From the NCBI GenBank assembly GCA_043814765.1, contig JBDRJQ010000028.1, positions 29,835 to 93,834 of the forward strand: a DNA stretch of 64,000 bases, given 5' to 3'. Source of the stretch: Nanobdellota archaeon (GTDB taxonomy: Archaea > Aenigmatarchaeota > Aenigmatarchaeia > QMZP01). A program made the position numbers and the translations under genes. Positions within the stretch are counted from its first letter, which is position 1. The number at the start of each line of letters is the position of its first letter. The notes under the pieces were generated by a model, which saw only the letters and a list, made by a program, of their open reading frames with translations, was not told the DNA's origin and did not search any database. Below, piece by piece: positions 7,123-56,079 of the stretch.

Positions 7123-7126
7123 AATA

Positions 7127-7318: not shown

Positions 7319-7319
7319 A

Positions 7320-7934: not shown

Positions 7935-8049
7935 CTCTTTATTCTTATAGCTTCTATATAAAGCTATAAAAATTAATATATATAATTTGCTTTATGATAC
8001 TTATAAAATCGCTGTATGATGCTCATTATAAGGCTATGGGGGGGATACT

Positions 8050-8286: not shown

Positions 8287-8390
8287 CTTTATAAACTCTC
8301 TAATGCTAAATACAGAAATAACATAGAGAAATAAACCATATTGATAATGAATTTCTTTATGTTGTTAATAAAATAGGAGATAAGAAAAAT

Positions 8391-8561
8391 ATGAGAGATG
8401 GAGACAGAGATAGACGTGGTGAACGAAATTTCGGTGGACCAAGAGAAATGCATAAAGCCACTTGTTCCGAATGCGGAAAGGAATGCGAAGTTCCTTTTAA
8501 GCCAGTAGAAGGAAGACCCGTTTTTTGCAGAGAATGTTTTGCTAAGAAAAGAGGACATTAA
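8391..8561 (+). CDS. small CxxC...CxxC zinc-ribbon protein (56 aa, zf-trcl-like); below the ORF-track length cutoff
   Basis: Own translation gives MRDGDRDRRGERNFGGPREMHKATCSECGKECEVPFKPVEGRPVFCRECFAKKRGH. AGGAGA ribosome-binding site 8 nt upstream. The competing ORF 8289..8558(-) is low-complexity antisense. Confidence 0.5.
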   Translation: MRDGDRDRRGERNFGGPREMHKATCSECGKECEVPFKPVEGRPVFCRECFAKKRGH

Positions 8562-32752: not shown

Positions 32753-32786
32753 TTCAAAGACGACTAAAGTCGTCAAACTATATAAT
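32753..32786 (-). promoter_or_regulatory. TATA box ATTATATAG plus palindromic operator TTTGACGAC-TTTA-GTCGTCTTTGAA immediately upstream of the PadR gene
   Basis: Perfect inverted repeat GACGAC/GTCGTC, spacer 4, abutting the TATA element, ~35-65 nt upstream of the PadR ATG (minus strand). Confidence 0.55.
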
Positions 32787-32805
32787 ATTTTACATTTGTA
32801 TAATA

Positions 32806-32910
32806 TAACCTTTACAAAACAATGTCTTTCGTAGTGTCTTGCGTTCGGTTTTGAACGCAGAAAAACAAAACCTTTATATATACATTGTTACTAGGTAATA
32901 GTAACATAGC
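32806..32910 (+). promoter_or_regulatory. promoter block X: TGTCTTTCGTA + GTGTCTTGCGT motifs, TATA (CCTTTATATATA), TAATAGTAACA at predicted TSS; followed by a ~180-nt leader
   Basis: Same motif order recurs at 37080..37200 (block Y). Confidence 0.45.
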
Positions 32911-33086
32911 TCTTTTGAACGGTAAAAGGTTCGCTGAGTTATCTTACACACGGAAAAAAAACTAGTTATTGGGTCTTAATGATCTGATAGCTTTCAACCA
33001 TAATTGGTACACTGGAACTATTTTTCAGCCTTAGGGCTCAATAATGAACGTGTGAATAAAACAAAAAAAATAAGGAGAAAACAGAA

Positions 33087-33839
33087 ATGAAGCTGTTAAA
33101 AACTACTGCCGTTCTTCTGTCGATTTTCTTTGTTCTCTGCATGGCCACTGTTTGCTATGCTGGCCCAGAAAACGGCAACGGCGCAGTTGACATTCTGACA
33201 AAGTCAGATTTGACTGATCTTCATAACACCATAATTATTGGAATTGTGGTGTTCGCATTAATCATGGTTGCGGTTATTCTTATTTTAATGTTTAGACCGC
33301 GACAAACACTTCCAGCAGTTGTTGAACTGGAACCGGAACCTGATAATCCTGAACCCAGCCCTGATTGGATGAGGTCCGGAGCAAAAAGAATAGCCAAAGA
33401 AGCGGTAGCTGGCATCGAAGAGGATCTCTCGATTGATATTGCCGGTGAATTGACAGATTTGGTAATAGGAGCAAGAACTGCTTCTGAAAACGCACGAAGA
33501 GAATTCATGCGTGTTTTCCGTCAAAGATTGAACGGTGGCAGCGATATCGATGCTCTTATAGATGAAGCCATCCGGCTAAGAGTGCGAGAACGGGGAGCTG
33601 AGCTTCCTCCGGAAGTTCTGGAACATGCAACAGATCCAACAGTTACTCAGGAAGAAGTGGATGCTCTTAACGCTGCTGTTAACACTGAAATGGCTCCGGA
33701 CCCGATTCTGACATTACTTGAGCGATTAGTGGATGGTCAGGCTGCTGCAACAGAAGCTATTCGAAATTTGACAGCTGCTGTAACACCTCCCCCTGACGAA
33801 ACATCGCATGCTCCAGACAGTAGCGGCGATGCAGGTTAA
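33087..33839 (+). CDS. secreted/membrane-anchored acidic protein (signal peptide, one TM, Pro/Glu-rich)
   Basis: N-terminal signal MKLLKTTAVLLSIFFVLCMATVCYA, TM IIIGIVVFALIMVAVILILMF. Higher GC than neighbours. AAGGAGA ribosome-binding site. Confidence 0.5.
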   Translation: MKLLKTTAVLLSIFFVLCMATVCYAGPENGNGAVDILTKSDLTDLHNTIIIGIVVFALIMVAVILILMFRPRQTLPAVVELEPEPDNPEPSPDWMRSGAKRIAKEAVAGIEEDLSIDIAGELTDLVIGARTASENARREFMRVFRQRLNGGSDIDALIDEAIRLRVRERGAELPPEVLEHATDPTVTQEEVDALNAAVNTEMAPDPILTLLERLVDGQAAATEAIRNLTAAVTPPPDETSHAPDSSGDAG

Positions 33840-33925
33840 CCCCCAACTGCCCAATAAACATGGGAGGAGAGTCTGTTCAATCAGGCCTCCTCCCAAAAAT
33901 CTCTGAACATTAAACAAGGAGGATT

Positions 33926-34405
33926 ATGATGAGAATCCTAAACATAATCTCATCTTTTTTTATTGCTTTCTGGGGACTGGTTAAGGGATTCTTCACCATT
34001 CTCCTGAAGTGCATTTGGATAGCAATCAAGTGGTTTTTCATAGCCCTTTGGAAACTGCTTAATTGGATCTGGAATAAAATCATTCTTGTCCAGAATTGGT
34101 TCAAAAGGACCAAACTTGGACGGGATTTGCGAAGAGGAAAGCGATGGCCGCGCATCACAGTGATGAGCCTAATGCTTTTCATTCTTTTTTCCGTCTTATG
34201 TTTTTCACTTCTTTTCTCCGGTCATAAAATGACTGGATTAATAATATCATTGTTTATTCTTTTTGGTCTTGTGCCTTTCTTTGGCACATGGGCCAGAAAT
34301 ATGTATCAAGCAGAGAATGCCGAACCAAAAAAGCGGCACTCAATGATTGACCATATTCCCTGGCCGTGGCTGAAAAATCATCCCTGGCGCAGAATTACAG
34401 CATAG
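33926..34405 (+). CDS. Trp-rich polytopic membrane protein
   Basis: 4 TM segments. AGGAGG ribosome-binding site 6 nt upstream. GC-rich island. Confidence 0.45.
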   Translation: MMRILNIISSFFIAFWGLVKGFFTILLKCIWIAIKWFFIALWKLLNWIWNKIILVQNWFKRTKLGRDLRRGKRWPRITVMSLMLFILFSVLCFSLLFSGHKMTGLIISLFILFGLVPFFGTWARNMYQAENAEPKKRHSMIDHIPWPWLKNHPWRRITA

Positions 34406-34459
34406 ATATCCTGATGAGGATGATTCCTGGGTGGAAAAAAAGGAAGAGAGGAGATCATC

Positions 34460-34795
34460 ATGGATGCAATTACCATCTCGGTTGGGCATCTGACATGCCT
34501 GCTATATCTCGCTTATATGGTGGGTTGGGTGCTAACCGAATTTGTCGCATATGCGACAAAAAACTTGAAGAGAAGAGGGGTAATCGTTCTGTTCTTGATT
34601 ATCCTGCTGTGCACCGCTGTTCTGTTGCATAATTTCAACAAATGGGATGCATATGGATCGTTTTTCATGGCGACTCTGTTTGTCTTCCCTCCGGCCGCTT
34701 TGGTGTTGCTTTCTCGAGAGGTAAGAGGAGGCAACAAATCAATTAGGGAGAGGATGAGAATCTTTGGTGGTGGCACTAAAGGAGATTCATCATGA
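34460..34795 (+). CDS. membrane protein (3 TM)
   Basis: GAGAGGAGA ribosome-binding site upstream. Overlaps the next gene by 4 nt (ATGA). Confidence 0.45.
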   Translation: MDAITISVGHLTCLLYLAYMVGWVLTEFVAYATKNLKRRGVIVLFLIILLCTAVLLHNFNKWDAYGSFFMATLFVFPPAALVLLSREVRGGNKSIRERMRIFGGGTKGDSS

Positions 34796-35091
34796 ACAAT
34801 TTTAATTTTATTATCGGAATCCTGGTAATCTCGACGCTTCTTTGTCTGGTTTTTGCTGTATGGAATTATCTGAAGCTCAAACGTTATCAGAACACTTATG
34901 TTTGGGCAAGTGGCAAAACTCAGAAAGGTGAGGACTTTCTCATTCTTTCAATTGAGGGTAAAGATGAGGATGCCACTCAGTATGAGTGCCATCGAGATGA
35001 AGAGGGCAAGATAACAATTATCGGACCTGCTGGTGAAAACCTTAAAGGCATTCAACACACGTTCGGTAACGGATATCGTCCTCGGATTTAG
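34792..35091 (+). CDS. small N-terminally anchored protein
   Basis: One TM then soluble domain. Translationally coupled to the upstream gene. Confidence 0.4.
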   Translation: MNNFNFIIGILVISTLLCLVFAVWNYLKLKRYQNTYVWASGKTQKGEDFLILSIEGKDEDATQYECHRDEEGKITIIGPAGENLKGIQHTFGNGYRPRI

Positions 35092-35176
35092 TTCAGGTAG
35101 AGGATGAGACCTCGTGGAACTTTAGGGTTTGATGGTGAGATACGATCAAAAATCCAAAGACCTAAGGAGGTCAACA

Positions 35177-35764
35177 ATGCAGATCGATTTGAATTACGTA
35201 GTAAACGCCATTCTGACCAACCTGGCATATGCAGTTGCGCTTGGGCTGGTTATGTGGGGAATTTGCAGGCTTCTGATAAAAGAACCTGAGGGCAATTACT
35301 GGGCACCAAGGGTCATGATGGTAATATTCCTGATCTCTGCGCTTGTCTTCACATTTTCTGTTGGAAGAATAACATTCCCAGCAGTTGACAATGCTGTAGA
35401 AAACATTTTCTCAGGTGTTTCAACATCGATAGCAAGTGCAACACCACATCCTGTGGTAAACATTCAGGTTGACACACCTCCTCCTACTGTAGTAATACAG
35501 AAGGAGACGAGTCAGCCAGTGGTCCGCGAAAGCGAACCGGTTCCAGAAACAACAGAAGGGGATACCTCAAATGAGAAATTTTCTGTAGACGGTCAGTTTG
35601 AAGATGGTACACCATACCATCTTTACACGATTGTCAGGGGCAATACCATATACAGCTTGTCCCGCAGATTTGGTGTCACCCAGGATGAACTTATGAGGCG
35701 GAACGATCTTAGGATTGGAACGCCTCTCCGTATCGGGAGGGATCTCAGGATTCCTATCAAATGA
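35177..35764 (+). CDS. membrane-anchored LysM-domain protein
   Basis: C-terminal LysM: YTIVRGNTIYSLSRRFGVTQDELMRRNDLRIGTPLRIGRDLRIP. Start placed at ATG 35177 with AAGGAGG 7 nt upstream; the ORF-track start 35129 is the alternative. Confidence 0.55.
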   Translation: MQIDLNYVVNAILTNLAYAVALGLVMWGICRLLIKEPEGNYWAPRVMMVIFLISALVFTFSVGRITFPAVDNAVENIFSGVSTSIASATPHPVVNIQVDTPPPTVVIQKETSQPVVRESEPVPETTEGDTSNEKFSVDGQFEDGTPYHLYTIVRGNTIYSLSRRFGVTQDELMRRNDLRIGTPLRIGRDLRIPIK

Positions 35765-35903
35765 AGCACAAACAATTGAATAGGTAACTTGGGAGGGGAG
35801 AAAAATCCTCCCTTTCCCTTTTCATATGTCTATCTATAGGGATATATAAATATATTTTACACTAGTAAAGTATTTAAATTTGCAAATACAATTATTTTAC
35901 AGG

Positions 35904-35935
35904 TATAAAATAGTTGACGACTTTATGTCGTCTTT
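35904..35935 (+). promoter_or_regulatory. TATA box TATAAAAT plus palindromic operator TTGACGAC-TTTAT-GTCGTCTTT immediately upstream of the inositol-phosphate synthase gene
   Basis: Near-identical to the PadR-gene operator (32753..32786) but inverted. Overlaps the predicted TSS, 13 nt before the ATG. Confidence 0.5.
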
Positions 35936-37079: not shown

Positions 37080-37200
37080 TTTATTGTCTTGCGCAAGACA
37101 AGATTTGTCTTTCGTAATGAAAACAGCACAAATCGAGCTCAAAAAGTGTCTTGCGTACCGATAGCTTTATAAAGCCTTTGTCACTATTTAATAGTAACAA
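37080..37200 (+). promoter_or_regulatory. promoter block Y: palindrome TTGTCTTGCGCAAGACAA, TGTCTTTCGTA, GTGTCTTGCGT, TATA (GCTTTATAAAG), TAATAGTAACA
   Basis: Homologous to block X (32806..32910) with insertions. Lies 36 nt upstream of the ATG of the first gene of the HerA-like operon. Confidence 0.45.
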
Positions 37201-37235
37201 TATGATAAAAACATCGAATAGGTGTGGAGGTCAAT

Positions 37236-37910
37236 ATGAGTAATATATATGTTTCGGAAAATGTTGCAAAACATTTTATACAAGGTGTGACTGATCACGC
37301 CATGGAAGGACAATTGTTAGACATAGAAGGAGAAAAAGAGTTTGTTGTAACATACAGACATGAAGGAAATTTAATTCAAAACACTTTAGTTTTTCCTGTA
37401 AGTGGAAGTATTGAAATTTCAGTAGATTCTTTAAGAAAAAAATATCCAAACATTTACAAAACATTAACAAAAAATAATGATATTGGAGATGCAGATAATG
37501 TTCTTTTATACGAAACAGATTTTACAAAACACAGAGAATTAGTTATTAGCAAAAACGCTAATAATGAAAATTTAGCAAAATATATTGATTTTAATGATAA
37601 TCGTATCCCGTCATATGCAAATAGTGAGTTTGAGCCTGTAGAGGATAATTCTTTAGATAACTTGAAAGAGTCTGCAAATTCAGACTTAGAGTATAAAAGA
37701 GTAAATGGAGTTGTAAGAAACTCACTAACATTCAACTATGGTGAAGAAGAAGCCCAGAGAATGCTAGAAAACTACGGAGAACTTTGGTTTGCTGAAAATG
37801 GTCAATTCGCAGGAGCTAGAGAATGGAATCAATTAGGTGAAGAAAAAGGTTGGGATTTCATGAAAAGGTACACTGAAGATGCAAAAAGGTTTGCACCTAC
37901 AAAAGTTTAG
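37236..37910 (+). CDS. hypothetical protein, paralog 1 of operon (N-terminal YVSEN domain)
   Basis: Start at ATG 37236 with GGAGG 6 nt upstream; the ORF-track start was GTG 37224. MSNIYVSENVAKHF...QNTLVFPVSGSIEISVDSL parallels the next gene. Confidence 0.5.
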   Translation: MSNIYVSENVAKHFIQGVTDHAMEGQLLDIEGEKEFVVTYRHEGNLIQNTLVFPVSGSIEISVDSLRKKYPNIYKTLTKNNDIGDADNVLLYETDFTKHRELVISKNANNENLAKYIDFNDNRIPSYANSEFEPVEDNSLDNLKESANSDLEYKRVNGVVRNSLTFNYGEEEAQRMLENYGELWFAENGQFAGAREWNQLGEEKGWDFMKRYTEDAKRFAPTKV

Positions 37911-37930
37911 AATTAGATTAGAGGTAAAAT

Positions 37931-38485
37931 ATGGACAATAAATATGTTTCAGAGAATATAGCATTGCTTAAGGATGTTTTGGTTAGCTATTGTATTCTAG
38001 AAGGGACATTGATAGAAGGATTGAATGAAAATGAAAGCGGTATCCCAATGTCACCAATGTTCATCAATTCGTATGATGATGAAGATGGAGAATATGTACA
38101 TTTACTTAAATCTGGTTGCGATGTTAAATCTAGAAATACACTTGTATTTGATGTTGTTGATTATGTTGAAATCGATAAAGAAACTTTCGATATAATAAGT
38201 GATACTATGGGCAGAAACAGGCACGTATATACTTCTTCTGAAAAAATAGAAGAAATGAAAAGTATTTACGATCAAGGTAAAAAAGTGCTTTTCCCATTGC
38301 TTCCGGGAAGAACCGATAATTGGATTTACAAAAAATATAGATCAATTGTGGCTAAAGAAAGAATGAAAATATTTAAAGATGTTCCTATAGTTGAAGCCAT
38401 TAGATCTGATTCCGGTAGCAGAAAACATAACAGTTATCCAGCAGGAACAGATTCTGAAAAATTGTTTGAGGGGATATTAGATTAG
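37931..38485 (+). CDS. hypothetical protein, paralog 2 of operon (N-terminal YVSEN domain)
   Basis: MDNKYVSENIALLKDV...RNTLVFDVVDYVEIDKETF. Preceded by the 23-nt element ATTAGATTAGAGGTAAAATATGG. Confidence 0.5.
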   Translation: MDNKYVSENIALLKDVLVSYCILEGTLIEGLNENESGIPMSPMFINSYDDEDGEYVHLLKSGCDVKSRNTLVFDVVDYVEIDKETFDIISDTMGRNRHVYTSSEKIEEMKSIYDQGKKVLFPLLPGRTDNWIYKKYRSIVAKERMKIFKDVPIVEAIRSDSGSRKHNSYPAGTDSEKLFEGILD

Positions 38486-38494: not shown

Positions 38495-39100
38495 ATGGCT
38501 GAAAAGAAAGGAAGAAAATATTTCGATGCAGAAGAACTAGAGGACATCTATTCATCTGGCATAGGTGAGGAACGCAGACATGAATTCTTAGACACACCTA
38601 CATCTTGGGATGACATAGACAAAGAGCCACGTGAAAGAGTGGAAAAGGTTCGCATCAAGACAGTTCAGACAATGCCTCGTCTTGAAGAAGAAGAGATGGA
38701 CAAACTTAAGATAATCAGCCCAAAAATAATTGGCAGTCTTTTTGATAGAGTAAAATTTTTGAAAGAAAGAATAGAAGAAACACAAAACACAATGAAAATG
38801 CGTACTGATATTCATAATGACATGTTAGCAGAGATAACTGAGGATATTAAGGAAAGACAGGGAATGTTGGGAAAGGCCATGAGCCTTGACGAGCAAAGAA
38901 GCATAAAACTTGACATGTCTGTTCTTAGAAAGGAAAAAAGAAAGGAAATAATTCAGTTATGGAGAGATATGTTTGATCTAAGAACTGAACTAAAGGAATT
39001 ACTAGAACAGTTCCAAAATGAACAAAAGCTTGCAGATCTTTTCTCTGAAATAAAACCTGAGAATAATAAGAAGGGAGGCATCGGAGAATCCGATATCTAG
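38495..39100 (+). CDS. highly charged coiled-coil protein
   Basis: Glu/Lys/Arg-rich heptad pattern throughout. Preceded by a second identical copy of the 23-nt element. Confidence 0.5.
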   Translation: MAEKKGRKYFDAEELEDIYSSGIGEERRHEFLDTPTSWDDIDKEPRERVEKVRIKTVQTMPRLEEEEMDKLKIISPKIIGSLFDRVKFLKERIEETQNTMKMRTDIHNDMLAEITEDIKERQGMLGKAMSLDEQRSIKLDMSVLRKEKRKEIIQLWRDMFDLRTELKELLEQFQNEQKLADLFSEIKPENNKKGGIGESDI

Positions 39101-39113
39101 GCAGGTTATAATT

Positions 39114-41351
39114 ATGATAGACATAAAAGAAAGATTATTCACTAGCGAAGTTAAGAAACTTATTCCAATCCTAGGCAGGGTTAATGTTGAAAGACTTAGC
39201 AAGGCATACTTGCTTGGTGATGAAGATACCAGATTAAGAATCTTCGAATTAATAGACGTAGCTAAGGCTGCTGTTTTCAGCGAAAACGAGCTTGGCGAAA
39301 GCATATTAATGGAGCCGCCTGAAAAAGAAGCTGTAGCTAAAGGAGAATTGACTCTTGGCAGTGTTCTTTATGGAAAGAAAAAAATGTATCCATTGAGATT
39401 CGAAAAGCAAAGGCTTTTGATGCACATGGGTATATTCGGTTCGTCTGGTTATGGTAAAACAAACCTTGCTCACAAAATGATACTAGAAATGGCAAACGAG
39501 GAATTGCCTATATTGATATTTGATTTCTCAAAGAGAAATTACAGAAAGCTATTAAGAACACCACTAAAGGACAGAATAGATATTTACACCGTGGGCAGAA
39601 ACACATCACCATTCAAATTCAATCCGCTTGTTCCTCCTGAAGGCATTCAAATGTCTCAGTGGATGAAGGAGTTCTCATCTGTATTCGATCATGCTTATTT
39701 CCTTATGGGCGGTGGTAGGCACATAATTATGAAGGCTTTTGACGGAGCTTTCGATGAGTCTGAAAAAACACCAAGATTGAGGGACCTTAAGGATTGGATA
39801 AACGAATACGCAGAACTCAAACTGCCAATGAGAGAGAAGAACTGGATAGCAACAGCTGCAAGGCCGTTGGATTCTCTAGTCTTCAGGGAAATTGGAGAGA
39901 TATTTGATTGTGATGTTGGTGTAAGGCCGTCTGATTTTTTCAAGAAAGGCAAGATAACTATTCTTGAACTGGATGCTCTTGACACTAATGACAAGACATT
40001 TTTCATAGAAATACTGTTACAGTGGATAAGAGATTGGCTTTTGGTAAACGATAAAAGAGAAGAGCTTATAGGAGCCATTATTTTAGAGGAAGCGCACCAT
40101 GTTCTGAACCGTGAAAAATCTATAAGAACTGGTTCAGAAACTGTTATGGATCTTTTGTTCAGAGAGATTAGAGAGCTAGGTCTAGGCATTATTTACTTGG
40201 ATCAGCACCCATCTTTAGTTTCTTATCCGGCTCTGGGTAATACATCTACTCATATTTATATGAATCTGGGACTTGATACAAAGCAGTCTTCAGATATACT
40301 AGATGCAACTCACATGCTTGGATTAGATTATGAAGAGGAAGGCAGCTATCTCAGAAGGCTTCCTGTAGGACAAGGCTTTATGCTTTGCAGAAACTTCGAA
40401 TTCCCAAGACCATTCCTTGTAAACTTCGATGAAGTGAAATTCACTGAAAAGGTAATAAAGGATGAAGAAGTAGCAGAACTGATGAAAACATACGACAAGA
40501 TTGTATCCAAACCAGTAGAACATAAAGTTGCAGAAAACATACCCAAAGAAGTAGTTAAGAAAACAAATGAAATAACAAGCGATATACAAAAAGCTGCTAA
40601 TGATCTTTTACGGGAAATAAAGCTGCTTACAGAAGAGTCTAGGGAATATGCTAAAGAAGAGTATATGGAAGACGCTAAAGAAGATGTAGTTGAGGAACCT
40701 GAAGAAAGAACAGAAATTATAGAACCTAAAATAGAAACACCAAAATTAGAAGACGTTAGCACAGTGGATATGCCCTTAGATAAGATAGACAAACAGGCAT
40801 GGAAAATAATTGATGTTGTTGGTAACGGTCATGGTGCATTTGCATCACAGATATACAAAAACGCCAGAGTATCTGGCACTGTTTTCAATGAAAAAATAGA
40901 GACACTTTTAGACCTGGGCTTAATTAAGCGTGTTGGTGGCAAAAGTGGCAAGAACAAGCTTCATTTTTATTACTTGACTGAAAAGGGAGAAAGGACATTT
41001 GATAGCAACTTCAGAAGATATGAAGGTGCTGTGGATGCTGACCTTTCAGGATTGCTAGAGCTGTTCTCTTTAGTCGGATGGAAAGCTACTCGTAAAGTAG
41101 ACATTCTGGAAATAACCAAAGAGGATGAGATACTTCCAGTTGCAATTATAGATTACACAGACAAAAATAAAATGTACGAAAGACTAAAGATAAACAAACA
41201 TTTTGTATGCGCAAACGAGACGCTAAAAAACATATTGGTGCAACAGGCAGCCAAGCGTTCATTAAAGAAACCAGGATTAACAATATTCGTTTCTACATTC
41301 AAGGATTTTGAAGATAACACAAAATTCGACAAAATAGAGTTCGATATTTGA
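39114..41351 (+). CDS. HerA/FtsK-superfamily (DUF87/AAA_10-like) ATPase fused to an acidic linker, a winged-helix domain and a C-terminal domain
   Basis: Walker A MGIFGSSGYGKTNLAHKM, Walker B DEAH-like IILEEAHHV, IYLDQHPS sensor-like motif. wHTH IYKNARVSGTVFNEKIETLLDLGLIKRV...YYLTEKGERTF. Confidence 0.6.
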   Translation: MIDIKERLFTSEVKKLIPILGRVNVERLSKAYLLGDEDTRLRIFELIDVAKAAVFSENELGESILMEPPEKEAVAKGELTLGSVLYGKKKMYPLRFEKQRLLMHMGIFGSSGYGKTNLAHKMILEMANEELPILIFDFSKRNYRKLLRTPLKDRIDIYTVGRNTSPFKFNPLVPPEGIQMSQWMKEFSSVFDHAYFLMGGGRHIIMKAFDGAFDESEKTPRLRDLKDWINEYAELKLPMREKNWIATAARPLDSLVFREIGEIFDCDVGVRPSDFFKKGKITILELDALDTNDKTFFIEILLQWIRDWLLVNDKREELIGAIILEEAHHVLNREKSIRTGSETVMDLLFREIRELGLGIIYLDQHPSLVSYPALGNTSTHIYMNLGLDTKQSSDILDATHMLGLDYEEEGSYLRRLPVGQGFMLCRNFEFPRPFLVNFDEVKFTEKVIKDEEVAELMKTYDKIVSKPVEHKVAENIPKEVVKKTNEITSDIQKAANDLLREIKLLTEESREYAKEEYMEDAKEDVVEEPEERTEIIEPKIETPKLEDVSTVDMPLDKIDKQAWKIIDVVGNGHGAFASQIYKNARVSGTVFNEKIETLLDLGLIKRVGGKSGKNKLHFYYLTEKGERTFDSNFRRYEGAVDADLSGLLELFSLVGWKATRKVDILEITKEDEILPVAIIDYTDKNKMYERLKINKHFVCANETLKNILVQQAAKRSLKKPGLTIFVSTFKDFEDNTKFDKIEFDI

Positions 41352-41626: not shown

Positions 41627-42494
41627 GACGACTACCGATTTCTAGAAGACCGTCCAACATGAATTCTACGCACAGCACTCTACAAATTCAGGGTGCAGGT
41701 GTATGAGAGACAGTCTATATGACTAGGCTTGAAATAGGTCTCTCGCTGAATGCAACTCTTTGATGGTAATTCTAGATAACCTGATAGGAGGAGAGACCTG
41801 TTTTTGAAAGTAAGCGTCAGTTTCTGTAACGGATTCTGACGATGGTTATAAAAACAGGGCTTTCACTTCGGTGTTAGCCCTACGAAAACAATCAGCAGCT
41901 TGTCTGCGCTTTCATTTAGCGGTTTCAAGTTCGGAAATCAACATCCGAACCGTTAAGATGTCACAGGTGCGCTTACATATTAGCGCGCCTGTTTTTTGAG
42001 AATACGGAACTTGGGGAAACCCTGGATCCTTTTCTACCAAGAGGAAGAGAGCCACAATTGAAGATTCGGCCTTACTAAAAGCTGGGCCAACCCCTTCATA
42101 AAGGATTGAACCTCTTGGTTTTTTGAAAACAATGCAAAGCCGGATCATAAAAACTGTCCAATGATCCGGCAGCTTAAATAATGGACAGGCAAGATCCACA
42201 ATACATTCGAATCGCGGTTCAAACCACAATTTCGGTTTCGGGCGCTTGTAATCACAGCACGACAGAAGAGTTCTTATTTAATGAACTCACATCGTTTCTC
42301 CACTCATCTGCAAGTAATTCTTCGTCCTGCAGCAGTCTCCTTCCACCTTTCCTTCCGTAACGCCTCCACCGATTCTAGTTTACGGCACAATATCTTCTGG
42401 CACAGTATCTTCTGGGATTGTATAAAACGAAGTAACAATTTCCCAGATTGATACAAATTTAAACGCGTCTCTCTTCCCCCCGTAAAAAGGGAAA

Positions 42495-42531
42495 GTGCCC
42501 GACTCCTTCCGCGACTCGGGCACTTTTTTTT
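42495..42531 (+). terminator. GC-rich hairpin GTGCCCGA-N13-TCGGGCAC followed by TTTTTTTT (intrinsic-terminator-like)
   Basis: 8-bp G/C stem plus T8. Would end a + strand transcript arising in the ORF-free region. Confidence 0.45.
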
Positions 42532-42910
42532 GTCCAGCTCATGACTACCGAAAGCAAGGATCGATGATTTAAACATTTACCTGAAACAGCGTGTAATCGG
42601 CACGCATACTCCAGGAATCAACAGATAGATGAGGAGGCCCGAAAAACAAATTAATAATCGCACGAAAGTTGTATTGGTTTTTCAAAAACCTATTCGGTAA
42701 AATCATTGCACAGCCAACAAGCGGTGCAAAATTAACTCAAAAAAGAGAACGGCACTTTGAGGTAAATGAGACATTATTGAATTTAAGCGACACCGAAAAG
42801 AGCCAATCTTAAACGCAGAAGCGATGATCAAACCATCCTTCTGCTTCTTTACATATATCTACTAAAAGGGATATAAGCAATAATCTGCAAACATGCTTCA
42901 AACAAAAAAA

Positions 42911-43216
42911 TTACTTCTTTTTGATGTACTTCTTGAACCATTTAAGAATTGTCCAGCGAGAAACCTTGATCCCGTGCCTGTGTTTCATCTCCTGCTGCAC
43001 CTCGGACAGAGAGAGGCCTTTACTGTAGAGAGCTACAGCTTTCATTATTGTATCTTTTTTGAACCTCATCCGCAGGAAATTGTCGTTTGGGGTATACTTG
43101 CGTCCGCACTTTTTACAGAGCCGAAGGTGCTTTTTAGTTGACTCGTTATACCTAAAACCTCTCCACACAGTGTTTGTGCTCTGGCAATGCGCACATCTCT
43201 CAATTTTATCTTTCAT
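42911..43216 (-). CDS. zinc-ribbon + HTH transposase-like protein (IS1 InsA-like/ISNCY-like helper); possible IS remnant
   Basis: CAHCQS...C-x-x-C (CKKCGRKY) N-terminal zinc ribbon then HTH GLSLSEVQQEMKHRHGIKVSRWTILKWFKKY. No catalytic transposase ORF nearby. Confidence 0.4.
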   Translation of the reverse strand: MKDKIERCAHCQSTNTVWRGFRYNESTKKHLRLCKKCGRKYTPNDNFLRMRFKKDTIMKAVALYSKGLSLSEVQQEMKHRHGIKVSRWTILKWFKKYIKKK

Positions 43217-45197: not shown

Positions 45198-48100
45198 TCA
45201 CAACCCCGACAGGTCCGCCTTCCAGACGCCGTATTCTGTGAGACCGAAAATTAAATATTTATTGTCTGGGGTGAGTGCCAGGTTGTCTGCGACATTGTCC
45301 CTTACCTGGTTGTCTACTATCAGCTCTTTGCCTGGCAGGCCACTGTTTATGATTTTCCAGCTGGCTCCGGCGTCCCTGCTTATGTAAACACCCACGTTGG
45401 TGCTTAAAAACAGTATGTTATGGTTTGGCGGATAAATCAGAAGCGTGTAGAATTCGCTTCCGCTATAAAGGCCGTTCATAATCCTGAACCAGTTCTCTCC
45501 GCCGTCTATTGTTTTCATCACAATACCGCAAAAAGTGTCTTTGTTTCTCTCACAGAAGCCCATGTTCTGCCCGTTCTTAGTTGAGGTATACATTATGCTT
45601 GGATTGTCGCTGTCGATTGCGATTGTGTAAGGCCACTGCTCAGGAGGCATGCCATTGCTTATCATCTCCCACGTTCTTCCTTTATTCAGTGATTTCACAA
45701 CCCCGTTGTATGTTCCTGCAAATAATATGCTGTGATTATGGGGGTGCATGCTCAAAGAAAACATGCCATCATTTCCCAGTTTCAGGCTTGAATCCTCCCA
45801 TGTATGCCCATTGTCCTCGCTTATGAAAAACCCGCTTGGGAAATGACCATAATAAATCTTTCCAGGGACATCAGGGTCAAACAGTATTGAGCTGAACTGA
45901 TACATCCTTCTTTCCCACGGGCTCCACCATCCGCCGCCAAATATGCCCTTTCCAAGACTCTGCCAGCTTTTGCTTGCAGAATTGAATTTATATATCCCGT
46001 ATCCAGCAGTTCCTGCGTAAATATCAGCACCTGTTAAGCCTATTGTTATGACAATATCATCCACATGAATCTCCCCTTCTAGTGATTCAAAAGCAATCCC
46101 TCCGTTCAATAGCGACTCGGTATCAGTATAATCTATCTTCAAATCATCATCAACATAAACCTTAACGTTGTTTCCATTGCCGACAATTTTAATGTCATAC
46201 CACCTGTCTCTGCTAAATGCCATGTCTTTATTTATCAGGTTCGTATGAACGCTATTATAAGTTCGCATCAGGTATAAGCTCCCACTGTTTAGACCTATAG
46301 CATACCTATCACTACCACTAACGCGGTAATTAATATGAACCGAGCCTTTGATTAACTTTACCCTACTCTCGAAAGTGTAATCAGTCCAGCTCTCTGAACC
46401 ACCACTAATCCAGTTATGGTCAATGCCCTGCAAGACATAGTTGCCGCCTTCCTGGATGACAGACCATCCAGTGTCTGACTTCCATCCGTCTGCGTTCCCG
46501 TCCTCAAAATCATCTCCAAGGGGCGGTCCTTCTATGTTTACAACCTTTAGCGATCTTATATCAAGGGTTTTTAGTCCGTCATTCATTTCAGTCCAACTTT
46601 CTCCATCATCACGGGTCACGAACACGCCTTCTTGAGTTCCTACATAAACTGTTTCCGAGTCTTTAGGATCAACAACAACAGCAGTTATAGGTTTCCTGAG
46701 CAACTCATTCTCATTTCCGTTGGCAAACATGCTCACACTCATATACTCGTGAGATCTGTACATTCCCTTTCCGTATGCGCCCATCCAAACGTCTGCCGGA
46801 TTGTTTGGGTCTATAGCAAAACTGTAGTATCCCTGTGTAATTGGATCATCCACAATAATGCTCGGCTGAGCGGTGTTTCTCTCATACCAAGTTTCTCCTC
46901 TATCATCACTTCGGAACATCCCTCCTGGATAAGCAGTTGCATAAATTCGATTAGAATTTGTTGGATCAATTTCAACCTGAATTCTGGAAATGTATGTTTT
47001 TGGTTTGTTGCTTCTGGAATTGTCCCAAGTAATTGAATAATCGTCATTGACAATCCCTGCATAAACCCCGCTTGCCCCTACAGCTGCGTAAACATAACCA
47101 TCTTCAGCTATAAGCGCAGCTGTGCCCAAACTTGGCAAACCCTCATTCTCCTGTTTCCAAGTTTCGCCACCATCACTGCTAACAAAAATACCCTGAGTGC
47201 TTGAGGCTACATACAAAAGATTCGGGTTCTGCGGATCAATCTCAACTGCCATAGTCGCGTGTTCGGTTTCGAGCATACGGGTCCAGGTTTCTCCGCCGTC
47301 TGTTGATTTGTAGGCTCCGCATGCATCCTGCTCTATGTTTTTAGGCAGTCCGGTAGGTTCAATTATATACTCAGGCAGCAATTCGCACAACCCTGCAGCA
47401 TACAGGGTGTTGCTATTGGAATAATCCACATCAATATCGTAGTACCCAAGCCTTGGAAGGCCTCCTTCCTTGTCATCCAGTCTCTCCCAGGTTTCTCCGC
47501 CATCAACACTCTTGAAAACTCCATATCCGTGCTTTGAAACATAAATTGTATTTGGATTGTTTGGATCAACCTCCATTTCAACCGTAGATTCAGCTACGCC
47601 TTCATCATTACCTGGCAGGTTTTCGTTCAGATCTGCTACCATCTCACCATTTATAATCTTTAGTAGTGAACCAGCCGCAACACAGAACGGACGCCCGAAA
47701 GTAGCTGCATAAATCGTATCTGGGTTGTTTGGATCAATTGCTACAGCGCTTGTCAGGACATTAGTTCTATCAAATTCATAATATTCTTCCCAAGTAAGCC
47801 CGCTGTCTTCGGATTTGTGTATAACTGGTTTAAGTCTGTCACATGCGTAAATAATGTCTGGATTTTTTTCAGAAATCGCCAAGCATGTCGGAGACTCAGG
47901 TGCGTTATCAAGCTTCACCCAATTACTTCCTCCGTCAATAGTCTTATAAGTCCCTCCGCCCCAGGTGCCTGCATAAACTATGTCTTTATCCCTTGGATCA
48001 ATCTGAAGCTGTGAATGACGCATAATGGTTGCAAATGTTAGCTCATCGTTAAGTTTACTCCAGGTTTCTCCTTTATTATTGCTCACATAGATGGTTCCTT

Positions 48101-49970
48101 CCTCTCCGATTACTCCTGCGTACATTCTGTCCGGGTTTAGCGGGTCAAACCTGAGCGATGTTATTCCTCTGGAATTCTCAACCCTGAATATCTCGCTCCA
48201 GACGTTTTGGTTTTTGGAATATCTCCAAATAGATGAATGGTTCTCAAATATCTTTGGCGAATACGTGGCATAGATAAAATTGCTGTTCTCTGGATCGATC
48301 TCAATATCATAAGTATAATCAGGGGAATATGTGAGATACCGCCAGCCCCCTTGCGAAGAGGCCTCTGAAATGCCGACACCTATATTGGACGCGTAGATTG
48401 TGCCGGAGTCTTTTGCTATCTCAAAATCAAAAATCTTTGCAGATGAAAAATCCTGAGCGATTTGTGTGAAAGTTCTCCCTCCATCATATGATTCGTATAA
48501 GTCGGTCAGTTCATCAGCCAGCAGGATGTGGTCTGAGTTGTGCGGGTCAATCTTTACATCGTCTCCGGCAGCGACTGGCGTGAATGGTTCCCAAGTATTT
48601 CCAAAATCCCTTGTGACATATGATTCCTGAATAACATTTCCTGAGGTGAACACAACATTCGGGTCTGTTGGGTGGGTCATGACAATGGTGGGGGATGTCC
48701 CTATAATATCACTGTCCATCTTTTTCCATGTTTTCATGCCATCCTCTGACTTAACCATTCCCAGAGCCCATATAGAGCCGGTCTTGCCGTAAGCTATGTT
48801 TGGGTTTTCATAATCAATCAAGAGTGCATCCAAGTTAAAGCCCACTTTTTCAAATACCTTGAGTCTTGGTTCATTGATTCGTTCATAACTAGAGCCATCT
48901 ATCTTAAGTATTGGAATGCCACCATAAGGATTCAGAAGATAATAAGCTGAGCCTGAAATAACAACATCTTCTACTCCATTGGATTCTAAAGTCAGATCTG
49001 TCACAGGGTTCCATGTTTTTCCTCCGTCATAGGATTCTCTTAAGAGCTCAGATATCGGGGAAAACCCCTCATGCACGATGTTGTATCTGAATGGTATCAC
49101 TATGTGTTGAGGATTGTCTGGGTTCTGAACAATCTTTGAAATAATAACACCGTCAGGTGTGTCAAAATCAATCGTGGACCATGTCCCACCAAGGTCTTCT
49201 GAAACGTACAAATAATTTTTTGAGAGTTCCCCTCTGCCACCTTTCATTACATTGATAGCTACCAAGATTCTATTTCCAAGCGCAATAATATTTCGAATTC
49301 CTATATCCTTATCATTTGTCGACAGTACTAAATCTTTCCAGTCAAAATTTCCCGAGGCCTCCCAAGAAGCTAGGTCAGCATACGATATTTCACCACCACC
49401 CATCTTTCCGTCACCAGAAATTATGAAAAGTTTATTGTCACTAACAAAGGGCTTTCCAAAATACCTGTCTGATATTTTTACAGGGTTTCTATTATTGTCA
49501 TAGTAATAAAGACCATCATCACAAATAAAAAATAATTTATCCTTGAAAAGTGCCATTGAATGAACACTGCCTATGATATCCTGTCCCTGCATTAGCTGCC
49601 AGCTTTCGCCTTTATCTACAGACTTCCGTATACCTTCAATAGTTATTACATACAATTCATGCGGCGGGAGGGGATTTTGTATCAATTGTTTTATACGCCC
49701 TCCTGGCGGGCCATTCATGGATACCCATGAAATGCTTGAATCAGCTTCCGGGTGGTACTGGACTTCTTCTCCCCCAAGTTTTTCCTGGACGCATGCATTA
49801 TTTTTGCACGCATAACCAACAGGGCAGATTTTAGTTTGATACTGTTTATCATCAACACAGCATTCGTATGGGCAGTATCCATCCACAAGTGGACTTTCTT
49901 CTGTAACGCATCCGCTGATAAGAACAATTCCTATAATCAATAATCCAATCAAAATTTTTGATTTCATCAT
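45198..49970 (-). CDS. 1590-aa secreted multi-propeller protein with 15 or more BNR/Asp-box (S-x-D-x-G-x-T-W) repeats, N-terminal Cys-rich module and an internal concanavalin/LamG-like (DUF1080-like) domain
   Basis: Signal MMKSKILIGLLIIGIVLISGC. Repeats SYDGGKTW, SEDLGGTW, SNNKGETW, TIDGGSNW, SEDSGLTW, SVDGGETW, STDGGETW, SSDGGETW, SDDRGETW, TRDDGESW, SEDNGHTW, SLNKGRTW, TIDGGENW, SRDAGASW. LamG-like block DDFEDGNADGWKSDTGW...YDIKIVGNGNNVKVYVDD. Confidence 0.6.
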   Translation of the reverse strand: MMKSKILIGLLIIGIVLISGCVTEESPLVDGYCPYECCVDDKQYQTKICPVGYACKNNACVQEKLGGEEVQYHPEADSSISWVSMNGPPGGRIKQLIQNPLPPHELYVITIEGIRKSVDKGESWQLMQGQDIIGSVHSMALFKDKLFFICDDGLYYYDNNRNPVKISDRYFGKPFVSDNKLFIISGDGKMGGGEISYADLASWEASGNFDWKDLVLSTNDKDIGIRNIIALGNRILVAINVMKGGRGELSKNYLYVSEDLGGTWSTIDFDTPDGVIISKIVQNPDNPQHIVIPFRYNIVHEGFSPISELLRESYDGGKTWNPVTDLTLESNGVEDVVISGSAYYLLNPYGGIPILKIDGSSYERINEPRLKVFEKVGFNLDALLIDYENPNIAYGKTGSIWALGMVKSEDGMKTWKKMDSDIIGTSPTIVMTHPTDPNVVFTSGNVIQESYVTRDFGNTWEPFTPVAAGDDVKIDPHNSDHILLADELTDLYESYDGGRTFTQIAQDFSSAKIFDFEIAKDSGTIYASNIGVGISEASSQGGWRYLTYSPDYTYDIEIDPENSNFIYATYSPKIFENHSSIWRYSKNQNVWSEIFRVENSRGITSLRFDPLNPDRMYAGVIGEEGTIYVSNNKGETWSKLNDELTFATIMRHSQLQIDPRDKDIVYAGTWGGGTYKTIDGGSNWVKLDNAPESPTCLAISEKNPDIIYACDRLKPVIHKSEDSGLTWEEYYEFDRTNVLTSAVAIDPNNPDTIYAATFGRPFCVAAGSLLKIINGEMVADLNENLPGNDEGVAESTVEMEVDPNNPNTIYVSKHGYGVFKSVDGGETWERLDDKEGGLPRLGYYDIDVDYSNSNTLYAAGLCELLPEYIIEPTGLPKNIEQDACGAYKSTDGGETWTRMLETEHATMAVEIDPQNPNLLYVASSTQGIFVSSDGGETWKQENEGLPSLGTAALIAEDGYVYAAVGASGVYAGIVNDDYSITWDNSRSNKPKTYISRIQVEIDPTNSNRIYATAYPGGMFRSDDRGETWYERNTAQPSIIVDDPITQGYYSFAIDPNNPADVWMGAYGKGMYRSHEYMSVSMFANGNENELLRKPITAVVVDPKDSETVYVGTQEGVFVTRDDGESWTEMNDGLKTLDIRSLKVVNIEGPPLGDDFEDGNADGWKSDTGWSVIQEGGNYVLQGIDHNWISGGSESWTDYTFESRVKLIKGSVHINYRVSGSDRYAIGLNSGSLYLMRTYNSVHTNLINKDMAFSRDRWYDIKIVGNGNNVKVYVDDDLKIDYTDTESLLNGGIAFESLEGEIHVDDIVITIGLTGADIYAGTAGYGIYKFNSASKSWQSLGKGIFGGGWWSPWERRMYQFSSILFDPDVPGKIYYGHFPSGFFISEDNGHTWEDSSLKLGNDGMFSLSMHPHNHSILFAGTYNGVVKSLNKGRTWEMISNGMPPEQWPYTIAIDSDNPSIMYTSTKNGQNMGFCERNKDTFCGIVMKTIDGGENWFRIMNGLYSGSEFYTLLIYPPNHNILFLSTNVGVYISRDAGASWKIINSGLPGKELIVDNQVRDNVADNLALTPDNKYLIFGLTEYGVWKADLSGL

Positions 49971-49991
49971 AATTCATCCACAAATATAAGA

Positions 49992-51914
49992 TTATTCTTC
50001 CAAATGCATTTCACCCTGAATTATTATGTAGTCGCCTTCCTTTCGTATATCCAGTGTTTGGTCAAAAGATATCCTCAAGTAAGACGGACAGATTTCATAG
50101 TAACCGTCGCTTTTTGGTTCAAATATTGTCTCTCCTTTTTCATTTACGAATTTAATGTATTTGAAATCCTCTTGAGCTTGAGCCGTTTCAAATTCAAAAA
50201 CTACCCCGTTTATTTCTTCAAAACCGCCTATAAGCGGCTTATACTTGTATCCTTCCTCGGTTATAGTCCCTACAGCCATAATAAGAGTATTATAATCAAC
50301 AGCAGGCAGTGAAAAATCCGTTTCAGGTAATTCGCCTTCTTCAATACTTTTAAAGGTTTCTACAAACTGAGCCAACACGCTACTTAAATCACTGTCTTGT
50401 TTAAAATCATCATAAGTTTTAGACAATTGGATTATATCTTTAGAATCGAATAGTACGGCTTCACTAAAATCATCTTTAATTACTATAAAGTCGATTTTTT
50501 TGTTTTCATTTAATTCCAACAATTGTCTGAAGAAACTTGCGGTACTTTTCATTTTATTATGGCCTTCTAATCCAACAATCGCTATTTCGTTTTCAGGGAA
50601 CAAATTAGCTTTGTTTTGCTCATTAACGGATGTTACTCCAAAAGGAAGATCCACATCAAGCCAAGCATAAACCGCTTTCTCCTCTCCCAATATGGCTGCA
50701 ACAGAATTTTCAAAAGCCATTCTCCCAAATTCTTCTCTTTCTCCCCACTCCTTTGATGCCTTCCACCTTGAAACGTAATCCAATGCAGTGTCTTTGAATT
50801 CGTTCTCTTCAGCCAAAGCCAACAAGGCTTCACTAAACTCATCGGTATATTTGTAGTCAATAAAGGTTCTGGGCACCATTGCAAGGGCAACGCAATCAAG
50901 AAACTTTGTTTTGCTCAAATCAAAGGCAATTACAGTATCCAATGCAGGGTATTCCTGCAAATCAATTATCCTGTCATCATCACTGTCCAATACCCCAGTT
51001 GATGGAATGGGAATCCATTGCCCATCATGGTAAATTTCAATCCAGTCGTGAGGCTTTATGCCTACTAGGCGTGACTCAATTATTCTTGCTGGAATTCCAG
51101 CAGCCCTCAATAAAGCCGTTATCAAATAAGTGTGTTCCGCACACATCCCTGTTTTATGCTGCCAAATTAGTTCAACATCGTCATATAGGGACTTGGGCCA
51201 ACTATATTTAGTGATTCTTTCCCTTCCTGTGATATACTCCTTTACAAAATCATAAATATTCCCTGCAGTGGTTAAATCATCCTCTCCCTCTAAACTCAAT
51301 GCCTTTTCCCGCAATGTAGTGGAAAAAAAGTTAAAGTCGTAATAAGTGTCGGTTCCAGAGTTCCAGGACGCGAAAAAATACAGCACCTCTTTTGGGTAAT
51401 CCTGCAGGTTTTGCTTCTCTTTATAGATTTCCAAGAACAGTTTCATAAATTCTATTTCTTCTTCAGAAAAAAACCCTTTCCGGCATTCTGAATAGTCGAA
51501 TCCTACCATTGGCGCGTATTTGTACGGCACATACAGATCAATGAAAACCTCCTCGAGCTCAGGATAGTCTTTTATCTCAGGGATATTTTCTTCTAGCACA
51601 ACTTTTGGTGTTTTTGGACAATCCTGCGGACAGGTTAAATATGTCTCTACAATTATATACGTTTCTTCAGTTTCACATATGCCATCTCCACAGCAGGGAA
51701 TTGTTTGAAAATAATAACAACTATTAGCAATACAATTCTTAGCAAAACAGGTCCTATCCGGACAATCTTCTTTAACTTCACATTCCTTTTCTTCTGCAGG
51801 CAGAGCCCCCTCTTGGACAGTTCCTGAATTAGTAAAAATAACTTCCATCGTCGACAATCCGATTAAAATTCCTATTATCAACAATCCGAATAAAATAATG
51901 TATCCGGGGTTCAT
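49992..51914 (-). CDS. secreted transglutaminase-like cysteine protease-fold protein (paralog 1) with N-terminal Cys-rich module
   Basis: Core GMCAEHTYLITALLRAAGIPARII...HDWIEIYHDGQWIPIPSTGVLD (Cys-His-Asp). N-terminal C-x-x-DCPDRTCF-x-x-C-x-x-NSC...CCGDGICETEE. Confidence 0.55.
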   Translation of the reverse strand: MNPGYIILFGLLIIGILIGLSTMEVIFTNSGTVQEGALPAEEKECEVKEDCPDRTCFAKNCIANSCYYFQTIPCCGDGICETEETYIIVETYLTCPQDCPKTPKVVLEENIPEIKDYPELEEVFIDLYVPYKYAPMVGFDYSECRKGFFSEEEIEFMKLFLEIYKEKQNLQDYPKEVLYFFASWNSGTDTYYDFNFFSTTLREKALSLEGEDDLTTAGNIYDFVKEYITGRERITKYSWPKSLYDDVELIWQHKTGMCAEHTYLITALLRAAGIPARIIESRLVGIKPHDWIEIYHDGQWIPIPSTGVLDSDDDRIIDLQEYPALDTVIAFDLSKTKFLDCVALAMVPRTFIDYKYTDEFSEALLALAEENEFKDTALDYVSRWKASKEWGEREEFGRMAFENSVAAILGEEKAVYAWLDVDLPFGVTSVNEQNKANLFPENEIAIVGLEGHNKMKSTASFFRQLLELNENKKIDFIVIKDDFSEAVLFDSKDIIQLSKTYDDFKQDSDLSSVLAQFVETFKSIEEGELPETDFSLPAVDYNTLIMAVGTITEEGYKYKPLIGGFEEINGVVFEFETAQAQEDFKYIKFVNEKGETIFEPKSDGYYEICPSYLRISFDQTLDIRKEGDYIIIQGEMHLEE

Positions 51915-51936
51915 GTTTTATATTGGGTTTGGGGTA

Positions 51937-52968: not shown

Positions 52969-52979
52969 ATTTGGGGGTC

Positions 52980-55079: not shown

Positions 55080-55178
55080 GTTTTATATTAGGAGTGGGGG
55101 GGTTATTAAAATTCTTGTTGAGATGGGTAAGAATTTTCAGTTTGATGGGTTTAATGAAATAAGATTGATGGAAGGATA

Positions 55179-55970: not shown

Positions 55971-56079
55971 TGATTAATTATTCGTTGAGCTGTTATAATA
56001 ATTAAGAGCTGCTTCCTTATCTGATAAGACGCCATTAAGCAAGAGTAATAAATATCTCCGACACTATAATAATTTATAT

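Follow-up and report, generated by a model that had tools for sequence, protein, structure and literature searches.

Introduction

Membrane-anchored proteins with a single LysM domain are known from bacteria, where division inhibitors of the Bacillus subtilis YneA type are of this kind. Wall-targeting proteins have also been described in archaea: DPANN archaea encode bacterial-type murein-targeting proteins, with murein-like lytic transglycosylases in Woesearchaeota and Pacearchaeota (PMC8204110), and acquired peptidoglycan hydrolases, as well as binding domains, occur in archaea, the Nanoarchaeia among them (PMC12352652). Here we analyze the segment at positions 33087–35764 of a 64,000-nucleotide stretch of contig JBDRJQ010000028.1 (assembly GCA_043814765.1, Nanobdellota archaeon), this whole stretch being referred to as the window. 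As the first-pass annotation of the window had described, the segment consists of five open reading frames (ORFs); all are on the same strand, and the last one encodes a LysM protein. The host is a DPANN archaeon, and the flanks of the segment encode L7Ae, S28e, L24e, and diphthine synthase.

We consider it likely that these genes, g1–g5, form a laterally assembled accessory envelope operon, which occupies a variable slot under native control between the divergent genes for PadR and myo-inositol-1-phosphate synthase (MIPS). The five genes are as follows.

33087–33839, forward strand: g1 (ABIF08_02420), 250 amino acids (aa), isoelectric point (pI) 4.5, orphan
33926–34405, forward strand: g2, 159 aa, or 158 aa if read from the ATG at 33929, pI 11.6, orphan
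34460–34795, forward strand: g3, 111 aa, about three transmembrane (TM) helices and a basic tail, stop codon overlapping the start of g4
34792–35091, forward strand: g4 (ABIF08_02430), 99 aa, orphan, N-terminal TM helix followed by some 70 aa of soluble domain
35177–35764, forward strand: g5 (ABIF08_02435, MFH1445317.1), 195 aa, annotated in the public record as a LysM protein

The slot between PadR and MIPS

To the left of the segment lie the genes for YchF GTPase, diphthine synthase, L24e, S28e, L7Ae, and PadR, and to its right the gene for MIPS, whose best matches among GTDB species representatives are Aenigmatarchaeota metagenome-assembled genomes (MAGs; 71–79% identity). PadR and MIPS are divergent neighbors in 16 of the 80 loci fetched for comparison. 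In 13 relatives the gap between them measures 73–182 bp; it reaches 340 bp in locus L025 and is filled with other genes in L023 (1.2 kb) and L005 (2.1 kb); in the window it spans 3,229 bp, and in L082 it spans 1,325 bp and holds two genes. Set against these syntenic relatives and an ancestral spacer of about 100 bp, the segment is shown to be an insertion, or variable cargo. On this point the proposed lateral acquisition is supported, with 3.2 kb here compared with 73–182 bp in 13 relatives and with different cargo in L082 and L091.

The closest complete locus, L082, was recovered from a JGI groundwater metagenome, and its organism is the one represented by GTDB JAHIRU01. Gene order in L082 follows that of the window (GTPase–DphB–L24e–S28e–L7Ae–PadR–slot–MIPS–…–o38495–HerA) at 62–89% protein identity, and its slot holds a gene for a 137-aa protein and one for a 115-aa protein with three TM helices, each preceded by a strong Shine–Dalgarno (SD) site, the pair being followed by a hairpin terminator. 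This cargo displays no enrichment in guanine and cytosine (GC) and comprises two genes in 0.95 kb, compared with five genes in 2.8 kb in the window. The third genome, L091, has an L7Ae protein 92% identical to that of the window and shares the promoter, operator, and leader; the first ORF behind these differs from those of the other two genomes, and the contig then ends. No similarity to g1–g5 was found in the L082 and L091 loci by tblastn, and no member of the g5 family in the Aenigmatarchaeota loci scanned.

Between the window and these sister genomes DNA identity is approximately 72–78%. Homology stops about 50 nt before the start of g1 and returns after the terminator, and these breakpoints therefore delimit the cargo:

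33036–35827, forward strand: lineage-specific cargo, approximate bounds from alignments with L082 and L091

The LysM protein g5 and its family

Architecturally, g5 possesses a TM hairpin (residues 5–66), a disordered linker rich in Pro, Thr, and Glu (residues 81–134), and a C-terminal LysM domain (nucleotides 35624–35755). The domain matches PF01476/CBM50 over residues 150–193 and profile positions 1–43 of 43, with a score of 40.7 bits (gathering threshold 20.9; E = 2.3e-10). In an AlphaFold2 model built with the family alignment, residues 146–193 have a predicted local distance difference test score (pLDDT) of 82–89 and are modeled as strands at 146–151 and 189–193 and helices at 158–165 and 169–175. 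This β-α-α-β fold superposes in the model on solved LysM modules: the best Foldseek match is the LysM module of a Thermus thermophilus NlpC/P60 protein (PDB: 4uz2; 41% identity, root-mean-square deviation 1.2 Å), and the top 33 matches in the PDB are all LysM-containing structures. The description of g5 as a LysM protein is thereby confirmed. The two TM helices and the mildly basic loop that connects them suggest an N-out/C-out topology, which would place the LysM domain outside the cell, and g5 is probably a binder of surface glycan or peptidoglycan.

Relatives were sought with HMMER among 1.84 billion cluster representatives, using a single query composed of g1–g4 and the first 148 residues of g5. 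Its validity is shown by the recovery of g1, g4, and g5 themselves. Beyond themselves, g1 and g4 had no relative among these representatives, and g2 and g3 had no match at all; the N-terminal domain of g5 yielded ten relatives (E from 1e-19 to 3e-4), and two more were added by profile search (members P0007–P0016, P0050, and P0051). Family members are built from two TM helices, the motifs G(R/Y)xxFPxxD and NxxVxVPPP, an acidic linker, and either a C-terminal LysM domain or a short basic tail, about half of them being without LysM. The best relative of g5 is P0007 (41% identity over the full length, E = 1e-48), and a profile of the family alignment scores g5 at 2.4e-42. The N-terminal two-helix domain matches no family in Pfam, NCBIfam, PHROG, PADLOC, or the PDB, the matches of g5 to PHROG, NCBIfam, and PADLOC models being limited to the linker and LysM part, and profile searches found no paralogy between this domain and g1–g4, the L082 cargo, or the neighbors of the family in loci of bacteria from the Candidate Phyla Radiation (CPR).

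All relatives of g5 on sufficiently long contigs sit among bacterial genes. The contexts found on bacterial contigs are listed here.

SmpB, Lgt, and RmuC
sigma-70 and PRPP synthase
HrcA–GrpE–DnaK–DnaJ, FemAB, and POTRA
bL28

One of these contigs belongs to the Parcubacteria group bacterium GW2011_GWC1_38_6, close to Wildermuthbacteria. On L093 and L095, two further LysM-bearing members lie downstream of genes homologous to the upstream neighbors of P0007 on L083, and these neighbors are unrelated to g1–g4. Altogether the family counts a single archaeal member, compared with six clusters with bacterial context and six on contigs too short to judge. The closest homologues of g5 therefore lie on bacterial contigs and in a distant taxon, a statement that holds for g5 only. 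The first-pass annotation had proposed looking up the nearest taxa of all five proteins; g5 is the only one with relatives, and its nearest homologues fall outside the archaeal lineage of the host.

The Parcubacteria locus (L088) also contains an analogous GC-rich, SD-dense islet at 5726–8432, next to hrcA–grpE–dnaK–dnaJ: a cluster of four genes with 45–46% GC, compared with 37.6% for the locus, in which all four genes have a strong SD site (GAAGGAG to AAGGAGG(T)) and the last is a g5-family member without LysM.

The proteins g1 to g4

The N-terminus of g1 resembles a signal peptide; behind it come a second TM helix (residues 49–67), the residues RPRQ, and a Pro/Glu linker that leads into a helical, acidic domain. 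The protein had been described as secreted and acidic; its acidity is as stated, but with a second TM helix it is not simply secreted. By the positive-inside rule, the acidic, all-helical domain of 180 residues is more likely cytoplasmic. An AlphaFold2 model made without an alignment is all-helical, with a pLDDT of 49.6, and is unreliable and too poor for a fold search. No family match of g1 was found in Pfam, PHROG, NCBIfam, PADLOC, or PDB sequence searches, and no relative in genome, viral, and metagenome scans.

By hydropathy, g2 is a basic protein with a Trp/Lys-rich amphipathic N-terminus and two TM helices, and g2, g3, and g4 all have predicted TM helices, in agreement with their earlier description as three small membrane proteins. 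Searches of NCBIfam, PADLOC, and PDB sequences gave nothing significant for g1–g4. The PGAP locus tags leave room for just one gene between g1 and g4, and the sequences of g2 and g3 as read here are absent from the public protein collection; either g2 or g3 is therefore probably unannotated in the public record.

Control region and regulon

The operon and its surroundings contain the following control elements.

32785–32806, no strand: left PadR-type palindrome (ATATTTTACATTTGTATAATAT), at the left edge of the ancestral spacer, a direct repeat with 35852–35873
32868–32905, forward strand: archaeal-type promoter with transcription factor B recognition element (BRE) and TATA box (AAACCTTTATATATA), then a palindromic operator (TTGTTACTAGGTAATAGTAAC, 32885–32905), near-identical in L082 (5490–5527) and L091
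32901–32947, forward strand: two-tier stem–loop of the leader, loop GGTAAAAG, minimum free energy −14.8 kcal/mol, z = −3.05
35852–35873 and 35892–35913, no strand: right PadR-type palindromes before MIPS, part of the ancestral two-operator spacer
37146–37198, forward strand: paralogous promoter and operator (GTGTCTTGCGTAC … GCTTTATAAAG … TTGTCACTATTTAATAGTAAC), TATA and GTGTCTTGCGT boxes lying upstream of the palindrome

The non-coding sequence shared by the window and L082 comprises the left operator, the promoter, the palindrome, a leader of about 130 nt, and the two right-hand operators; in both, the promoter reads AAACCTTTATAwATA and the palindrome TTGTTACTAnnTAATAGTwAC. The inner stem of the leader covaries in the three genomes (TGAAC/GTTCG, TAAAC/GTTTA, and TAGG/CCTA), and the RNAalifold consensus of these has ten pairs, three with compensatory double changes. 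Since promoter, operator, and leader are common to the sister genomes, they represent a native control region and not a promoter that arrived with the genes.

The palindrome between PadR and MIPS follows the motif ATTTTACA-N3/4-TGTAAAAT, which is found in Aenigmatarchaeota and some other archaea (including the spacers of L001, L003, and L010–L015), with two copies in short spacers and three in the window and L082; L091 has the motif as well. It is probably the operator of PadR, and such a putative site would tie this regulator to the control of inositol-phosphate synthase. We also considered whether the 22-bp direct repeat flanking the segment is a target-site duplication; this was rejected, as the repeat is a diverged regulatory palindrome with the same three-copy arrangement in L082. 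A hairpin, GACGAC-N4/5-GTCGTC, occurs in the 5′ leaders of both PadR (32763–32778) and MIPS (35917–35933), with a 12-nt perfect inverted repeat and oriented alike with respect to either transcript; ahead of PadR in L082, this position is taken by another inverted repeat of greater length (GATGACT…AGTCATC).

The island operator itself is found again 4 kb downstream, in front of the next operon. Operators of the GTTACTA-N5-TAGTAAC type have three matches in the window, where 0.03 would be expected by chance, and one copy lies at 37178–37198 (9740–9762 in L082), within the promoter that fronts two low-GC orphan genes, o38495, and a HerA-like ATPase. Related palindromes were detected downstream of MIPS in the more distant loci L004 (2547) and L005 (11237). 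An operator shared by the island and the next operon implies a small regulon. A search for the operator in IMG/VR gave one hit, a chance match without flanking similarity.

Shine–Dalgarno sites and gene junctions

Each of the five genes has an SD core of 5 nt or more, located 3–9 nt before its start codon, and the operon ends in a terminator-like hairpin.

33072–33077, forward strand: SD of g1, AAGGAG, spacer 9 nt
33861–33895, forward strand: hairpin in the g1–g2 spacer with a 14-bp stem (GGGAGGAG…CCTCCTCCC) and no T tract, −27.4 kcal/mol, z = −3.3
33916–33922, forward strand: SD of g2, AAGGAGG, spacer 3 nt (6 nt to the second ATG)
34448–34453, forward strand: SD of g3, GAGGAG, spacer 6 nt
34779–34784, forward strand: SD of g4, AAGGAG, spacer 7 nt
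35164–35171, forward strand: SD of g5, AAGGAGGT, spacer 5 nt
35791–35823, forward strand: terminator-like hairpin closing the operon, then a T-rich tract

SD sites are enriched in the island, in line with the claim that consensus sites are rare elsewhere: five of five genes have one, versus 10 of 58 other ORFs (Fisher p = 4e-4) and 8 of 33 native operon-internal genes. Given that native internal genes and the unrelated cargo of the sister genomes carry such sites, SD is no mark of foreign origin. Four of the genes had been thought to be translationally coupled; the sole overlap is that of the g3 stop with the g4 start (ATGA), whereas the spacers of g1–g2, g2–g3, and g4–g5 are 86, 54, and 85 nt long. 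The hairpin in the first of these is possibly an element for RNA stability or processing, or an attenuator, and its stem resembles that of the terminal hairpin at 35791–35817. An Rfam search of 32.6–36.0 kb gave chance-level matches only.

Composition

Compared within the 64 kb of genome in the window, the island has 44.2% GC and the remainder 38.5%, a difference of 5.8 points; the contrast of about 50% to about 35% given in the first-pass annotation was overstated. A value of 50% is reached in a single 300-bp window, in the 3′ half of g1, and this peak is due to amino acid composition, as the tail of g1 is rich in Ala, Glu, Pro, and Asp, its GC at first codon positions (GC1) is 0.62, and its GC at third positions (GC3) is native-like (0.339, native mean 0.349). 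Codon usage does differ, as had been noted: the island ranks second of 54 gene blocks in distance, its pooled GC3 is 0.413 versus 0.352, and its tetranucleotide distance is the fifth of 246 windows. On the other hand, the GC3 of g1 is native, and blocks at 45–50 and 50–58 kb deviate as strongly as the island. Another 10 kb or so of the window has a GC content as high as that of the island; comparable native GC islands had been named from the start as evidence against a foreign origin, and blocks of a similar kind are indeed present. The composition of the island is mildly atypical but not diagnostic, and the equally deviant blocks make it a much weaker argument for foreign origin than had been stated.

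Origin of the operon

In the explanation we favor, the cargo, or at least g5, would have entered laterally from bacteria, probably CPR organisms of a shared groundwater habitat, and come under the native promoter. A single transcript would begin near 32.9 kb and extend as far as the 35.8-kb terminator, with g1 behind a leader of about 190 nt and g2–g5 in internal positions; SD sites would be needed for this arrangement, which may be why they are so dense. The g5 protein would insert as an N-out/C-out helical hairpin and show its LysM domain outside the cell on a flexible tether of about 85 residues, and g1–g4 would form or modulate an accompanying membrane complex. The domain would bind a glycan that contains N-acetylglucosamine (GlcNAc): as it is predicted to lie outside an organism without peptidoglycan, binding to the wall of a bacterial neighbor or host, the most likely ligand being its peptidoglycan, or to chitin-like glycans is suggested. 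Contact with the wall of a bacterial partner through LysM is plausible, and it would fit the archaeal proteins described previously (PMC8204110; PMC12352652).

The lateral acquisition proposed earlier is supported by the insertion relative to relatives and by the bacterial relatives of g5, with a moderately atypical composition alongside. Several observations weigh against our explanation. No homologues of g1–g4 were found anywhere searched, so a foreign origin of these four genes is unproven. The neighbor-joining tree of the g5 family has bootstrap values of at most 50%, and the bacteria-to-archaeon direction is therefore read from distribution alone. To these we add the native-like GC3 of g1, the deviating blocks at 45–58 kb, and the conserved slot being documented in three genomes only. 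Signatures of mobility were also sought: no integrase or transposase was detected with Pfam and PHROG, the window contains no tRNA, and a clean target-site duplication is lacking. The acquisition had moreover been called recent, and this is unsupported, because the slot and its control elements (promoter, operator, leader) are older than the split from sister genomes that are only approximately 72–78% identical in DNA, and the best relative of g5 is only 41% identical.

A native, vertically inherited, and very fast-evolving operon is the first alternative. The cargo of the window, L082, and L091 would then be orthologues diverged beyond recognition, the GC excess would stem from amino acid composition, and g5-like genes, if they moved at all, would have gone from archaea to bacteria. 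Promoter, operator, and leader are kept in all three genomes as vertical descent would have it, g1 has native GC3, and other surface-protein blocks in the window share the GC of the island; g5-family genes exceed their bacterial host loci by 4–8 GC points too, and the tree with its low bootstrap values leaves room for either direction. We nevertheless regard vertical descent as unlikely, since flanking proteins are 62–89% identical where cargo proteins lack any similarity, gene number (five versus two) and length (2.8 versus 0.95 kb) differ, and the L082 cargo is not GC-enriched. In addition, the g5 family is not found in the scanned Aenigmatarchaeota loci, and in bacterial loci its gene follows conserved neighbors.

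The remnant of an integrated virus or plasmid, for example a lysis or superinfection module composed of holin-like small membrane proteins and a LysM wall-targeting protein, is very unlikely. Small multi-TM proteins with charged tails do lie beside a LysM protein in a compact, SD-dense organization, for which the GC-rich four-gene islet of the Parcubacteria locus offers an analogue, and g5 matches the PHROG endolysin family phrog_2742 (E = 6.6e-6). That match, however, is confined to the linker and LysM (residues 120–192), and no lytic domain is present in g1–g5. Integrase, capsid, and replication genes were not found, the g5-family gene sits among chromosomal housekeeping genes in CPR loci, and no matches were obtained in IMG/VR, the INPHARED phages, or the PLSDB plasmids (50,697 phage records and 72,556 plasmids), so that the virus or plasmid source envisaged earlier found no backing.

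That faulty assembly or binning placed a bacterial (CPR) fragment within an archaeal contig is hardly credible: although both types of organism share groundwater metagenomes, the relatives of g5 are bacterial, and the exact contig is known from a single MAG record, the segment lies inside one 98-kb contig with archaeal sequence on both sides and flanks colinear with the sister genomes to about 50 nt before g1 and about 60 nt after g5, cargo is present at the same spot in these genomes, and a double chimeric join inside a 100-bp spacer, behind a native leader, would be very improbable.

Neighboring variable regions

A second variable slot lies to the right of MIPS. Its two orphan genes (37224–38485) have 26–32% GC in 300-bp windows and no homologues in the fetched loci; L082 lacks them and has different, oppositely oriented ORFs at this place. 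The gene pair that follows at 38495–41351 is conserved and common to L082 (77% identity for the first protein); it encodes a 201-aa acidic coiled-coil protein and a 745-aa ATPase of the HerA/FtsK type with a C-terminal winged-helix domain. The ATPase matches DUF87 (1.5e-12) as well as CedD (8e-14) and mad8 (3e-14), both well under the family thresholds, and may be a DNA-translocating or defense ATPase co-regulated with the island.

Among the GC-richer parts of the window, the blocks at 45198–58404 (42–46% GC) hold genes for large proteins that are secreted or membrane-bound: a 1,590-aa protein with BNR/sortilin-Vps10 repeats, two transglutaminase-like proteins, and several orphans. A run of small ORFs on the minus strand at 41912–43216 (43–45% GC) includes one for a 101-aa Cys-rich, zinc-ribbon-like protein with a borderline match to Clr5/helix-turn-helix, and this region may be a degraded mobile element.

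Significance

If acquired as we suppose, the operon is a well-delimited example of gene flow from CPR bacteria to DPANN archaea, two ultra-small and probably episymbiotic groups, and involves the gene for a predicted surface glycan-binding protein. It would add to the hints that some DPANN archaea physically contact bacteria and not archaea alone. The analysis also defines a small, previously undescribed membrane-protein family (two TM helices, FPxxD, with or without LysM) common to CPR bacteria and one DPANN archaeon, and a variable slot under conserved native control, at which denser sampling could reveal the swapping of surface equipment in streamlined genomes.

A bolder proposal, which we think quite unlikely, is that the slot is a dedicated expression platform, its promoter, operator, and structured leader serving as a landing pad, in which unrelated, SD-led membrane-protein cassettes, some of them from CPR bacteria, are exchanged repeatedly, co-regulated through the shared operator with the HerA/Ced-like ATPase operon. 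If true, the platform and the ATPase could make up an apparatus, quickly re-tooled, with which the cell attaches to bacterial partners and exchanges material with them, and cassette exchange would be running without an integron integrase.

Comparison with known systems

Archaeal acquisition of bacterial cell-wall-targeting domains is already known, and current views are not overturned by this locus; the 2-TM/LysM family and the conserved promoter/operator/leader platform with exchanged cargo, the latter from three genomes, are new. Like the archaeal wall-targeting islets described to date, it encodes a peptidoglycan- or GlcNAc-binding module with bacterial relatives, in an archaeon without peptidoglycan synthesis, on a protein predicted to be membrane-bound or extracellular, and this is likewise read as contact with bacteria. 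Unlike those proteins, g5 is small, without a hydrolase domain, and anchored by a TM hairpin; the locus itself differs in that the operon of g5 also encodes four orphan membrane proteins, CPR bacteria appear to be the donors, the promoter is native and conserved, and the slot cargo differs between sister genomes.

Among bacterial LysM anchors (DipM, MltD, NlpC/P60, SleL), g5 has in common the single C-terminal LysM of canonical β-α-α-β fold, and its matches to the DipM, ActS, and MltD models are through LysM only; its N-terminal domain with G(R/Y)xxFPxxD and NxxVxVPPP, in contrast, matches no searched family. Compact small membrane proteins beside a LysM-bearing protein recall the holin–endolysin cassettes of phages, from which the island differs in having no muralytic domain, holin family match, or viral context. 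The slot differs from integrons in having no recombinase in or next to it and no repeated attC-like inverted repeats between its genes, in a comparison of three genomes; it resembles integron-type platforms in its conserved promoter and leader, followed in all three genomes by non-homologous, SD-led cargo, with the break close to the first start codon.

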